The translations under genes were made by a program, and so were the position numbers. The notes under the pieces were generated by a model. It was not told the origin of the DNA. It made no database searches and saw only the letters and a list, made by a program, of their open reading frames with translations. A stretch of DNA of 64,000 nt from the sequence record PV390659.2; one strand, written 5' to 3'. The stretch is from Escherichia phage vB_EcoM_P8. Of the stretch, positions 12,676-61,430 are shown piece by piece (position 1 is the first letter of the stretch; every line of letters starts with the position of its first letter).

Positions 12676-14930
12676 TTAATGTTATCAAAAGTAGTGGTGT
12701 TTCTCAGAGCTTTGACCCGCAAAAAATTATTAAAGTTTTATCTTGGGCAGCTGAAGGAACATCTGTAGATCCTTATGAATTATATGAAAATATTAAATCA
12801 TATCTCCGTGATGGAATGACAACTGATGACATTCAGACTATTGTCATTAAGGCTGCTGCGAATTCTATTTCAGTTGAAGAGCCTGATTATCAATATGTAG
12901 CTGCACGCTGTTTAATGTTCGCTCTTCGTAAGCATGTTTACGGGCAATATGAGCCCCGTTCATTTATTGATCACATTTCTTACTGTGTAAATGAAGGTAA
13001 ATACGACCCTGAATTGTTATCAAAATATTCTGCAGAAGAAATTACATTTTTAGAATCAAAAATTAAGCACGAGCGGGATATGGAATTTACTTATTCCGGG
13101 GCGATGCAATTAAAAGAAAAATATCTAGTTAAAGATAAAACCACTGGTCAAATTTATGAAACTCCGCAGTTTGCATTTATGACTATTGGAATGGCATTGC
13201 ATCAAGATGAACCTGTTGATAGATTAAAACATGTTATTCGTTTTTATGAAGCAGTATCTACTCGACAGATTTCATTACCAACTCCTATTATGGCTGGTTG
13301 CCGTACTCCAACTCGGCAGTTTAGTTCATGCGTTGTTATTGAGGCAGGTGATTCGCTGAAGTCTATCAATAAGGCTTCCGCTTCAATTGTTGAATATATC
13401 TCCAAACGAGCTGGAATCGGCATTAACGTTGGTATGATTCGTGCCGAAGGTTCTAAGATTGGCACAGGTGAAGTGCGTCATACTGGTGTTATTCCTTTTT
13501 GGAAACATTTTCAGACTGCTGTTAAATCATGTTCACAGGGCGGAATTCGTGGCGGCGCTGCTACTGCTTATTATCCTATTTGGCATTTGGAAGTTGAAAA
13601 TCTTCTCGTTTTGAAAAATAACAAAGGCGTAGAAGAAAACCGTATCCGTCATATGGATTATGGTGTTCAGCTGAATGACCTAATGATGGAACGATTCGGA
13701 AAGAACGATTACATTACTTTGTTTAGTCCGCATGAAATGGGTGGCGAACTTTATTATTCTTATTTTAAAGACCAAGACCGCTTCCGTGAATTGTACGAAG
13801 CTGCAGAAAAAGACCCTAATATTCGTAAAAAGCGTATTAAAGCTCGTGAACTATTTGAATTGCTCATGACTGAACGTTCAGGAACAGCAAGGATTTATGT
13901 ACAGTTCATTGATAATACGAATAACTATACTCCATTTATTCGTGAAAAGGCACCTATTCGCCAGAGTAACTTGTGTTGTGAAATTGCTATTCCAACAAAT
14001 GATGTGAATAGTCCTGATGCCGAAATTGGATTGTGTACGTTATCTGCATTTGTGTTAGATAACTTCGATTGGCAAGACCAAGATAAAATTAATGAATTAG
14101 CAGAAGTTCAAGTTCGTGCTCTTGATAATCTTTTGGATTACCAAGGATATCCAGTTCCTGAAGCAGAAAAAGCTAAAAAGCGTCGAAATCTTGGTGTAGG
14201 TGTTACTAACTATGCAGCTTGGCTGGCAAGTAATTTTGCTTCTTATGAAGATGCTAACGATTTAACACATGAACTATTTGAGAGATTACAGTATGGACTC
14301 ATTAAAGCATCCATTAAACTCGCCAAAGAAAAAGGACCTTGCGAATATTATTCAGACACTCGTTGGTCTCGAGGCGAATTACCTATCGACTGGTACAATA
14401 AAAAGATTGACCAAATCGCAGCTCCAAAATACGTTTGTGACTGGTCGTCGCTGCGGGAAGACCTTAAGCTCTTTGGCATCCGTAATAGCACATTATCAGC
14501 ACTTATGCCATGTGAGTCATCTTCCCAAGTTTCTAACAGTACAAACGGTATCGAGCCTCCACGTGGACCAGTCTCTGTTAAAGAGTCAAAAGAGGGTTCC
14601 TTTAATCAAGTCGTGCCCAATATTGAGCATAACATAGACTTATATGATTATACGTGGAAATTAGCTAAGAAAGGTAATAAACCTTATCTTACACAGGTAG
14701 CTATTATGCTTAAATGGGTGTGTCAATCAGCTTCAGCGAATACATATTATGACCCGCAGATTTTTCCAAAAGGAAAGGTTCCAATGTCTGTGATGATTGA
14801 TGACCTTTTGTACTTTTGGTATTTTGGCGGAAAAAATTTCTATTATCATAATACCCGCGATGGTTCTGGTACTGATGATTATGAAATAGAAACTCCAAAA
14901 GCTGAAGATTGTTCATCCTGTAAATTATGA
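12666..14930 (+). CDS. nrdA: Ribonucleotide reductase large subunit (aerobic class Ia)
   Basis: 754 aa, equals T4 NrdA length; N-terminal ATP-cone and RNR catalytic-region motifs. Confidence 0.95.
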   Translation: MQLINVIKSSGVSQSFDPQKIIKVLSWAAEGTSVDPYELYENIKSYLRDGMTTDDIQTIVIKAAANSISVEEPDYQYVAARCLMFALRKHVYGQYEPRSFIDHISYCVNEGKYDPELLSKYSAEEITFLESKIKHERDMEFTYSGAMQLKEKYLVKDKTTGQIYETPQFAFMTIGMALHQDEPVDRLKHVIRFYEAVSTRQISLPTPIMAGCRTPTRQFSSCVVIEAGDSLKSINKASASIVEYISKRAGIGINVGMIRAEGSKIGTGEVRHTGVIPFWKHFQTAVKSCSQGGIRGGAATAYYPIWHLEVENLLVLKNNKGVEENRIRHMDYGVQLNDLMMERFGKNDYITLFSPHEMGGELYYSYFKDQDRFRELYEAAEKDPNIRKKRIKARELFELLMTERSGTARIYVQFIDNTNNYTPFIREKAPIRQSNLCCEIAIPTNDVNSPDAEIGLCTLSAFVLDNFDWQDQDKINELAEVQVRALDNLLDYQGYPVPEAEKAKKRRNLGVGVTNYAAWLASNFASYEDANDLTHELFERLQYGLIKASIKLAKEKGPCEYYSDTRWSRGELPIDWYNKKIDQIAAPKYVCDWSSLREDLKLFGIRNSTLSALMPCESSSQVSNSTNGIEPPRGPVSVKESKEGSFNQVVPNIEHNIDLYDYTWKLAKKGNKPYLTQVAIMLKWVCQSASANTYYDPQIFPKGKVPMSVMIDDLLYFWYFGGKNFYYHNTRDGSGTDDYEIETPKAEDCSSCKL

Positions 14931-14981
14931 TATAATTTGACTCACGGACGAGTCACTATCTATTAACTAAGCGGAAAATTT

Positions 14982-16160
14982 ATGAGCACAGTTTTTAATA
15001 CAAATCCAGTTGATGTTTTAAAAGAACCTATGTTCTTCGGTTCAGGTCTTGGTATTGCGCGTTATGATATTCAACGTCATAAAGTTTTTGAAGATTTAAC
15101 CGAAAAGCAGTTGTCATTTTTCTGGCGTCCTGAAGAAGTAAACTTGATGATGGATGCTGCACAATTTAACAAGCTTCCTCAGTATCAGCAAGATATTTTT
15201 ACTAATAACCTGAAGTATCAATCACTTTTGGATAGCATTCAGGGTCGTGCACCGTCTGCTGTACTTATGTCGTTAATTTCAGACCCAAGTCTTGATACAT
15301 GGGTTGCTACATGGACTTTTAGTGAAACTATTCACAGTCGTTCATATACTCATATCATGCGAAATCTTTATACTGATCCATCAAAGGTATTTGATGAGAT
15401 TGTATTAGATGAAGATATTATGAAACGTGCTGAGTCCATTGGTCGTTATTACGATGATGTTCTCAATAAGACCCGTGAATGGGAAAATGCTAAAGAATTT
15501 GTAGAACTAGCTAAAGAATCTCCTGATGCTGATTTTCGTTTAAATCGAGCTATTAAACAAGAAGCCGAAGCTAAACGAGCACTAATGAAATCTCTTTATC
15601 TTTGCCTTCATGTAATCAACGCATTGGAAGCTATTCGTTTTTACGTATCTTTCGCATGTACCTTTAACTTCCATAAAAACATGGAAATCATGGAAGGTAA
15701 TGCTAAGATTATGAAGTTTATTGCGCGTGATGAGCAACTTCATCTTAAAGGCACTCAATATATTATTCGTCAACTTCAACTTGGCACTGACGGTGATGAA
15801 TGGGTTAAAATTGCTCAAGAGTGTGAACAAGAAGCAGTTGATATTTTCATGGAAGTTAACCGTCAAGAAAAAGACTGGGCAGTTCATTTATTTAAAGATG
15901 GCGATGTTCCTGGATTAAATACAAATAGCATGTGGAGCTTTATTGATTACTTAACTGTATCTCGTATGAAACAGTGCGGTCTTCCATGCCCAATTACCGA
16001 TGCTCCGGTTAAACATCCATATCCTTGGATTCGTGAATACCTTAATTCTGATAATGTTCAATCCGCGCCGCAAGAAGTAGAACTGTCATCTTACCTTGTT
16101 GCACAGATTGATAATGATGTTGATGATAAAGTTATGATGAGTTTTAAAAAATATTTTTAA
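14982..16160 (+). CDS. nrdB: Ribonucleotide reductase small subunit, uninterrupted (no intron)
   Basis: 392-aa continuous ORF with di-iron ligand motifs (e.g. ETIHSRSY); no intervening intron or endonuclease ORF. Confidence 0.95.
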   Translation: MSTVFNTNPVDVLKEPMFFGSGLGIARYDIQRHKVFEDLTEKQLSFFWRPEEVNLMMDAAQFNKLPQYQQDIFTNNLKYQSLLDSIQGRAPSAVLMSLISDPSLDTWVATWTFSETIHSRSYTHIMRNLYTDPSKVFDEIVLDEDIMKRAESIGRYYDDVLNKTREWENAKEFVELAKESPDADFRLNRAIKQEAEAKRALMKSLYLCLHVINALEAIRFYVSFACTFNFHKNMEIMEGNAKIMKFIARDEQLHLKGTQYIIRQLQLGTDGDEWVKIAQECEQEAVDIFMEVNRQEKDWAVHLFKDGDVPGLNTNSMWSFIDYLTVSRMKQCGLPCPITDAPVKHPYPWIREYLNSDNVQSAPQEVELSSYLVAQIDNDVDDKVMMSFKKYF

Positions 16161-16164
16161 GGAG

Positions 16165-16186
16165 TGGGCCGCAAGGCCCATTTTAT
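16165..16186 (+). terminator. Hairpin after nrdB (terminator and/or split-SD structure for denA)
   Basis: TGGGCC-GCAA-GGCCCA followed by TTTTATT; lies between SD GGAG (16161-16164) and the denA ATG (16188). Confidence 0.45.
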
Positions 16187-16187
16187 T

Positions 16188-17775
<1,588 letters not shown>

Positions 17776-25080: not shown

Positions 25081-25090
25081 AATAAAATGA

Positions 25091-39910: not shown

Positions 39911-40537
39911 ATGTATGAATACAAATTTGATGTGAGAGTTGGTTCTAAAATAATCAACTGTCGCGCATTTACTCTTAAAGAATATCTAGAACTTATTACT
40001 GCTAAAAAGAACGGTTCAGTAGAAGAGATCGTTAAAAAGCTAATCAAAGACTGTACAAATGCAAAAGATTTAAACCGCCAAGAATCAGAACTACTATTGA
40101 TTCATTTATGGGCACATTCTCTTGGAGAAGTTAATCACGAAAACTCCTGGAAGTGCACCTGCGGAACTGAAATACCAACCCATATAAATCTATTACATAC
40201 ACAAATAGATGCACCAGAAGACCTCTGGTATACACTGGGTGACATTAAAATTAAGTTCCATTACCCTAAAATTTTTGATGATAAAAACATAGCCCACATG
40301 ATAGTATCATGTATAGAAACAATTCATGCTAACGGTGAAAGCATTCCAATTGAAGACTTGAATGAAAAAGAGTTGGAAGATTTATATTCTATCATCACAG
40401 AGTCAGATATTGTAGCTATAAAAGATATGCTTTTAAAGCCTACTGTTTATTTGGCTGTTCCAATTAAGTGTCCAGAGTGTGGAAAAACTCACGCTCATGT
40501 AATAAGAGGACTCAAAGAATTCTTTGAGCTATTGTAA
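39911..40537 (+). CDS. 26: Baseplate hub subunit gp26
   Basis: 208 aa, equal to T4 gp26. Confidence 0.8.
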
Positions 40538-40935
40538 TGGCAAATATTAATAAGCTTTATTCTGACATTGACCCAGAAATGAAAATGGATTGGGACAAAG
40601 ACGTTTCCAGATCTCTTGGATTAAGGTCAATTAAAAATAGTCTTTTAGGAATTATTACAACCAGGAAAGGGTCAAGGCCATTTGACCCAGAATTTGGATG
40701 CGATTTATCTGATCAGCTTTTTGAGAATATGACTCCTCTTACTGCTGATACTGTTGAGCGTAACATTGAAAGCGCAGTAAGAAACTACGAGCCACGTATT
40801 GATAAATTAGCAGTTAATGTAATACCAGTTTATGATGATTATACTCTGATAGTAGAAATACGCTTTTCGGTCATCGATAACCCTGATGATATTGAGCAGA
40901 TAAAACTACAACTGGCTTCCAGTAACAGAGTATAA
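40537..40935 (+). CDS. 25: Baseplate wedge subunit gp25
   Basis: 132 aa, [22 protein letters not shown]...; matches T4 gp25. Confidence 0.85.
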   Translation: MANINKLYSDIDPEMKMDWDKDVSRSLGLRSIKNSLLGIITTRKGSRPFDPEFGCDLSDQLFENMTPLTADTVERNIESAVRNYEPRIDKLAVNVIPVYDDYTLIVEIRFSVIDNPDDIEQIKLQLASSNRV

Positions 40936-61400: not shown

Positions 61401-61427
61401 AAAAATCCTTTGGGGCCTTGCGGCCCC
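61401..61427 (-). terminator. Hairpin after wac
   Basis: GGGGCC-TTGC-GGCCCC followed on the - strand by AAAGGATTTTT. Confidence 0.5.
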
Positions 61428-61430
61428 ATG

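Follow-up and report, generated by a model that had tools for sequence, protein, structure and literature searches.

How does a T4-like phage start translating denA, its gene for endonuclease II (EndoII), a nuclease that degrades host DNA, when a stable hairpin stands between the only Shine-Dalgarno (SD) element and the start codon? This question is raised by the nrdB-denA junction of Escherichia phage vB_EcoM_P8 (PV390659.2), which lies in the 64,000-nt stretch of DNA analysed here and called the window. The window belongs to Tequatrovirus. Over 1 kb it is 100% identical to Escherichia phage vB_EcoM_BMB16, and it shares ~97-98% identity with the T4, T2, and T6 relatives. The favoured answer, held at a probability of roughly 0.55, is a hairpin-bridged (split) ribosome-binding site (RBS) for denA on a read-through nrdB-denA messenger RNA (mRNA), with the same hairpin also acting as a leaky terminator or stabiliser.

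The junction is compact. The nrdB coding sequence (CDS), annotated as class Ia ribonucleotide reductase in a homologous record and present in the list of open reading frames (ORFs), occupies 14982-16160 on the plus strand and ends with the stop codon TAA at 16158-16160. The SD element AAGGAG (16159-16164, core GGAG 16161-16164) begins inside this stop codon and abuts the 5′ base of the hairpin. The hairpin consists of the 5′ arm TGGGCC (16165-16170), the GNRA tetraloop GCAA (16171-16174), and the 3′ arm GGCCCA (16175-16180), which together form a perfect 6-bp stem. A U-rich 7-nt spacer, UUUUAUU (16181-16187), is also a candidate terminator U-tract and leads to the ATG (16188-16190) of denA, whose ORF encodes 136 amino acids (16188-16598); all of these elements are on the plus strand. 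With a gap of 27 nt from the nrdB stop to the denA start, the two genes are not coupled here by an ATGA-type stop/start overlap. The original prediction had placed the stop codon, the GGAG, the hairpin, and the ATG at these positions, and all are exact on the sequence and in the ORF check. It had also put the SD-ATG spacing at ~23 nt when linear and ~7 nt when folded; subtraction of the 16-nt hairpin does turn 23 nt into 7 nt.

The start codon itself has been annotated in two ways. An in-frame GTG at 16164-16166 (plus strand) opens a 144-amino-acid ORF, and denA is annotated from this GTG as a CDS of 435 nt in the RefSeq T4 genome NC_000866.4 (137517-137951) and in MT984581.1 (137522-137956). 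If translation began there, the hairpin would merely encode the first eight residues, VGRKAHFI. The frame is open, and some Dhakavirus records (JS10, VR5) start denA at an in-frame ATG in the 5′ arm of the hairpin. A GTG start is nevertheless highly improbable. It is not conserved, most genera have no in-frame start upstream of the denA ATG, and the frame is lost across nrdB-denA spacers of 26, 27, and 28 nt. The eight supposed codons between GTG and ATG covary as RNA pairs and not as amino acids. The GTG also lies inside the stem at zero spacing to the SD element, with no SD upstream of it. In nine genera the conserved DenA N-terminus, MKxIA, begins at the ATG, and the protein alignment is conserved only from that point. 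Biochemical and structural work concerns the 136-amino-acid protein: the EndoII crystal construct, PDB 2WSH, reads as a His-tag followed by MKEIATEY, and the E118 numbering and 16.8 kDa tagged mass in EndoII work from the Carlson laboratory fit 136 amino acids. This comparative and structural evidence is taken to rule out the GTG, and ATG 16188, as originally predicted, is on these comparisons the real start. The RefSeq T4 denA CDS is very probably eight codons too long and starts inside the hairpin. The GTG start is probably a long-standing over-extension that was copied into other records, such as those of Dhakavirus JS10 and VR5.

The hairpin at 16165-16180 is present in both the minimum free energy and the centroid structure computed with RNAfold. 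Its core 6-bp stem, with a predicted stability of -11.6 to -12.2 kcal/mol, stays paired throughout the predicted ensemble. A scan of 15900-16500 against Rfam, with E-values up to 10, gave only chance-level matches, the best being L20_leader, whose 23 bits fall short of the gathering score of 58.7. The denA hairpin is outside every curated RNA family.

Conservation of the junction was followed in relatives gathered by BLAST and by a DenA-profile scan of IMG/VR. The resulting 30 distinct variants span at least 10 T4-like genera and include junctions of Tequatro-, Mosig-, Gelderland-, Jiaoda-, Marfa-, Moon-, Dhaka-, and Muldoonvirus and of further IMG/VR lineages. They share one plan: a stop codon, an SD core, a GC tetraloop hairpin of 4-7 bp, 6-10 nt, and ATG. 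A pattern scan of IMG/VR for hairpin variants of the T4 type returned five contigs, all already in the variant set. The 5′ arms of the stem differ widely and include UGGGCC, GGGAC, GGGAGAC, AAGGGC, UAGGGC, CAGGGC, GAGGGC, AGGGCC, and others. Most genera have a UUCG loop, and Tequatrovirus has GCAA or, in one relative, GUAA. Rarer loops are the single-base changes UUAG and UUUG and one loop of 5 nt.

Pairing is kept while the bases change. In a gap-free alignment of 27 variants, 90.5% of the cells are paired, and both sides have changed in five of the seven pairs. The basal pair occurs as A-U, G-C, U-A, and C-G among the variants. None of 500 column shuffles reached the observed covariation score, and slid controls scored far lower. 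The RNAalifold consensus of the same 27 variants consists of the 6-bp hairpin and nothing more, and its SD region is single-stranded. The covariation and this consensus indicate that the hairpin is under selection as a structure. On comparative grounds, it is a real, selected RNA element.

The SD element follows the hairpin through these changes. In 29 of the 30 variants, the stem is preceded by an SD core (AAGGAG, AAGGA, AAGG, or GAG) at a distance of 0-4 nt. Extra bases, where present, separate the core from the stop codon and leave it next to the hairpin; examples are TAAATTAGGAG-stem (L051) and TAAAGGAT-stem (L021). Linear SD-AUG spacing ranges from 21 to 28 nt (median 24). Looping out the hairpin shortens this to an effective 6-10 nt in 27 of 29 variants (median 8); in two Gelderlandvirus variants it comes to 14 nt if a bulged extension of the stem is left out of account. 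All 30 variants have 6-10 nt from stem to ATG. No SD-like word occurs between hairpin and ATG in the 30 Tevenvirinae-type variants. The maintained order of SD, hairpin, and ATG, the stem pairing with its compensatory changes, and the short hairpin-ATG distance in ~30 variants support the split-site reading that was first proposed from the window alone.

At denA itself, the SD element is 23 nt from the start, well above the ~15 nt limit, and no usable SD is present at canonical spacing. The duplex of the denA SD with the 3′ end of 16S rRNA is predicted at -8.5 kcal/mol. The intervening hairpin is stable and local, and folding gives a distance in the functional range of ~5-11 nt, namely 7 nt, or 9 nt by the counting that assigns 11 nt to T4 gene 25. 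One conventional candidate was considered: AAGG at 16173-16176, with a spacing of 11 nt. This word straddles loop and stem in equal halves, forms a predicted duplex of just -3.0 kcal/mol, and has no counterpart in the relatives with a UUCG loop. It was rejected, although the annotation of Ac3 marks AGG at 16174-16176.

The denA SD also contains a motif of another kind. GGAG at 16161-16164 matches the core motif at which the T4 RegB endoribonuclease cleaves the SD elements of early genes, and the described RegB target is an 11-nt single-stranded region (PMC1702504). This possible RegB site directly precedes the stable stem, and its fourth G is not conserved elsewhere (GGAC, GGAA, GGAU, GGU).

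The layout is rare within the window. The 84 gene starts annotated in the identical GenBank record were scanned for an SD word of at least 4 nt, a gap of 0-4 nt, a Watson-Crick hairpin of -3 kcal/mol or lower, 3-11 nt, and a start codon. Only two of the 84 starts match, those of denA (16188) and gene 25 (40537). The expectation from shuffled upstream regions is 0.06 matches per 84 genes, or 0.003 at the hairpin stability of gene 25. The split site of gene 25, at the gene 26-25 junction, has been studied experimentally (Nivinskas et al. 1999; Malys and Nivinskas 2009; summarised in PMC3014915). In the window it comprises GAGG (40506-09), the hairpin CUCAAAG-AAUU-CUUUGAG (40511-28), an 8-nt spacer, and ATG 40537 (40506-40539 in all, plus strand), and reads UAAGAGGA-CUCAAAG-AAUU-CUUUGAG-CUAUUGUA-AUG. 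Its blind recovery as the sole other match serves as a positive control.

The same hairpin has terminator-like features. A GC-rich stem is followed by a U-tract, and the tail UUUUAUUA has 6 U in 8 nt. Several GenBank records annotate the nrdB-denA hairpin as a terminator. A simple terminator scan did not list it, likely because a stem extension that tolerates G·U pairs absorbs the U-run. No promoter was found between the nrdB start and denA with patterns for σ70/early, MotA-box middle, and late promoters, so denA lacks the promoter of its own that efficient termination at the hairpin would call for. It follows that denA is read by polymerases that pass the hairpin and that any termination is partial. 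The first candidate promoter after the nrdB start is a MotA-box-like middle promoter, TGCTTCCACATGGAGTGTGGTACTAT (TGCTT, 12-16 nt, TAnnnT), at 16599-16624 on the plus strand, after the denA stop and before rnlA. Thus rnlA, unlike denA, may have its own promoter. No mapped transcript 3′ ends at the nrdB-denA site were found in the accessible literature.

The U content of the 8 nt after the stem varies from 2 to 7 among the variants and is unevenly conserved. Eight of the 30 have only 2-4 U, and tails such as GUAAAGCU, AUUUCAU, and UCUGUU would be poor terminators. The SD core, the stem, and the 6-10 nt before ATG are kept, whereas the U-tract is variable, and the split-RBS features are therefore kept more faithfully than the terminator feature. 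With 6 U of 8, the partial terminator of the original prediction is plausible here. Its U-tract is unevenly conserved, and with no denA promoter in evidence it could be no more than leaky.

These features can also be read without a split site. The hairpin would then be only a leaky intrinsic terminator, a stabiliser of the nrdB 3′ end, or both, in line with the other tetraloop hairpins of T4 intergenic regions. Translation of denA would come from reinitiation by ribosomes that have terminated on nrdB or from SD-independent initiation, and the AAGG 5′ of the stem would be an accident or a relic. This account is possible, though the less expected outcome. It draws on the abundance of such hairpins in the window. 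Perfect stems of at least 6 bp with at least 5 GC pairs and a 4-nt loop number ten, against 0.26 expected from 100 dinucleotide shuffles (a ~40-fold excess), and they lie mostly at gene ends. The stem at denA is followed by UUUUAUU and annotated as a terminator, and a comparable hairpin in T4 mobE terminates 30-50% of transcripts (PMC2790892). Against this account stand the poorly kept U-tract and the agreement of the layout with validated gene 25 and with nothing else in the window. The hairpin-SD-ATG order of the other window hairpins that precede genes is found in 0 of the 30 Tevenvirinae-type variants.

Several further observations weigh against a split site, and some of them favour a terminator. 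In Krischvirus E26 (L064, Escherichia phage), the region upstream of denA (345-400) reads UAAUAAGGU, hairpin GGGCGGGA-GAAA-UCCCGCC, UUUGUUGUGACG, SD GAGGAAAGGAUA, and AUG. The hairpin, with its GAAA loop, is preceded by UAAGGU, yet a canonical SD follows it; the spacer is 26 nt in all, and the upstream gene encodes a hypothetical protein and not nrdB. Because the Krischvirus hairpin has a normal SD downstream, it probably has a role that is independent of SD splitting, most simply that of a terminator or RNA-end stabiliser. By the same comparison, Krischvirus shows that an upstream AAGG can persist without being a working SD. Other phages have denA without any hairpin. It is joined to nrdB or another upstream gene by an ATGA overlap, with neither SD nor hairpin, in the IMG/VR contig L044 (~690-704) and in the Aeromonas phages AS-gz and AS4 (L065 and L066; 389-392), and the upstream gene ends 3 nt before denA in Slopekvirus VAC13 (L067; 380-388). 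These junctions would imply plain translational coupling and point to an ancestral or alternative solution. Serratia phage WSPA has the stem without a free SD upstream of it. In the window, 25 of the 84 starts have no 4-nt SD at canonical spacing, and an SD is therefore not strictly needed in this genome. The denA stem is about twice as stable as that of gene 25 (-11.6 versus -6.4 kcal/mol), and a stem of such rigidity may not be tolerated in the 30S cleft. The function of the denA element as a split site is also proposed from computation only.

Predicted accessibility of the SD is a further point on the same side. For the T4-type sequence, folding predicts SD guanines that are paired most of the time (unpaired probability 0.01-0.31). 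The partner is 16181-16184, which pairs weakly with GGAG 16161-16164 (G·U, G·U, A-U, G·U; -3.4 to -4.2 kcal/mol). Across the variants, the median SD unpaired probability is 0.15, against 0.42 for 58 ordinary SDs of the window. The value for denA is 0.11, that for gene 25 is 0.41, and denA falls at the 17th percentile of ordinary SDs. These folding models suggest that the element may damp initiation as much as enable it, and a site tuned down rather than up may suit a nuclease gene.

Carried further, the same pairing could make the element mainly inhibitory. An extended GGAG-UUUU helix would hide the SD and keep a toxic nuclease low, and denA would depend on strict coupling, with the helix melted by a ribosome that reaches the end of nrdB. 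Besides the low accessibility, this is consistent with the Jiaodavirus junction, where AUAAGGA pairs with UCUUUAU over 7 pairs. The nrdB stop codon is 4 nt from the stem, and from the ribosome footprint a terminating ribosome would have to open the stem. Other lineages, moreover, couple denA by an ATGA overlap. A mainly inhibitory role is unlikely, however. The SD-masking extension is not conserved by covariation or in the RNAalifold consensus, where the SD is unpaired, and 12 of 27 variants lack pair 7-24. The SD is accessible in six variants, and the G·U and A-U pairs are weaker than the SD:anti-SD duplex of -8.5 kcal/mol. The accessibility of denA, at its percentile, is not an outlier among ordinary SDs. 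A conserved extended helix that hides the SD was rejected, as the extension is absent from the conserved consensus structure.

The split site remains the preferred reading, and it would work as follows. Having no promoter of its own, denA would be read from a polycistronic mRNA through nrdB. The only SD, AAGGAG, is too far from the AUG in linear terms. The intervening 16 nt would fold at once into an extra-stable C(GCAA)G hairpin and, once looped out, leave ~7 unpaired nt between SD and AUG. The AUG could then be positioned in the P site of a 30S subunit that holds the SD, be it a new subunit or one just come from termination on nrdB, as at T4 genes 25 and 38. Ribosomes that finish nrdB would probably use the split site too. 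With its U-run, the hairpin would most likely also be a leaky intrinsic terminator or a stabiliser of the 3′ end of the nrdB message, and leaky termination would keep the nuclease gene at a lower dose than nrdB. Both the use of the split site by ribosomes and the ending of transcripts at the hairpin are inferred from these sequence features.

A tighter link between the two functions can be imagined, and it is a rather doubtful one. A ribosome trailing the polymerase to the nrdB stop, 4 nt from the stem, would delay the hairpin and allow read-through; the hairpin would then shut and assemble the denA split RBS. If so, EndoII would be made only from actively translated nrdB messages, and the extra-stable UNCG and GNRA loops would be selected because folding must be fast.

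The other features of the window provide a setting for the junction. The ten perfect GC-rich tetraloop hairpins lie at 12465-84, 16165-80 (denA), 24208-27, 25090-105, 31210-25, 33597-618, 45533-50, 47117-38, 48476-95, and 61411-28. Their sense-strand loops are UUCG, GAAA, GCAA, and GGGA, and most are at gene ends. Several have U-runs, such as the hairpin at 24208-27, which is followed by UUUUUAUUUU. Other tetraloop hairpins that precede genes, such as those at 25090 (plus strand), 42133 (minus strand), and 61411 (minus strand), have the usual hairpin-SD-ATG order. The one at 61411-61428 on the minus strand is a near-twin of the denA hairpin, TGGGGCC-GCAA-GGCCCCA, with one G-C pair more. It is followed by AAAGGAUUUUUAA-ATG of a 309-amino-acid ORF in the ordinary order, and it provides an internal contrast.

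Upstream of the junction, nrdB is intron-less here and contiguous over 392 amino acids, and in T4 nrdB is joined from two pieces. Unlike in T4, there is no mobE between nrdA and nrdB. The 51-nt nrdA-nrdB spacer (14930-14982 region) contains a weak hairpin, TGACTCACGGACGAGTCA, at 14938-55, which is terminator-like in the scan.

If the split-site reading is true, denA would add a third split RBS to T4, with an extra-stable tetraloop and in many genera, and would make the arrangement a recurring design rather than a curiosity. The junction would also provide a natural example of one hairpin that possibly serves both transcription termination and translation initiation. For annotation, it would mean that RBS finders misplace the denA RBS, next to a RefSeq T4 start that is probably eight codons early.

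Hairpins of this kind are familiar from T4. The C(UUCG)G and GNRA tetraloop hairpins of T4 mRNA were described by Tuerk et al. 1988 (history in PMC4371310). The denA hairpin resembles them in having a loop closed by C-G, GCAA here and UUCG in most other genera. It differs in position: most of them sit between the end of a gene and the next SD, whereas the denA hairpin is inside the translation initiation region. The nrd region of T4 has a leaky terminator hairpin inside mobE, whose termination has been read as expression tuning (PMC2790892). Like the element at denA, it has a short GC stem, a 4-nt loop, and a short U-tract. The mobE terminator differs in lying within a coding region and in having mapped 3′ ends.

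The closest counterparts are genes 38 and 25, the T4 genes for which a hairpin-bridged RBS was demonstrated by mutagenesis and probing, where the reported spacing shrinks from 22 nt to 5 nt at gene 38 and from 27 nt to 11 nt at gene 25 (PMC3014915). Gene 38 is outside the window, and the comparison with it uses the description in the review (PMC3014915). Its linear spacing is nearly equal to that of denA (22 versus 23 nt), and in both an intervening structure restores a workable distance. The original analogy with gene 38 gains support from the window, where the only other start with this layout is that of validated gene 25.

Gene 25 can be compared directly, as it is in the same genome. The denA junction has the same order: an upstream stop UAA, an SD, a hairpin with a 4-nt loop, 7-8 nt, and AUG. 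Unlike gene 25, denA has a GC-rich stem with a GNRA or UNCG tetraloop and about twice the stability, a U-run that makes its hairpin terminator-like as well, and an SD that is predicted to be less accessible. The denA element is also present in more genera, whereas the review limits the gene 25 site to close T-evens (PMC3014915). The accessible literature yielded no mention of a split site at denA, of a mapped terminator of nrdB, or of N-terminal sequencing of native EndoII; older T4 literature may mention denA. The review lists only genes 38 and 25 as T4 split sites (PMC3014915), and denA is a probable further member.

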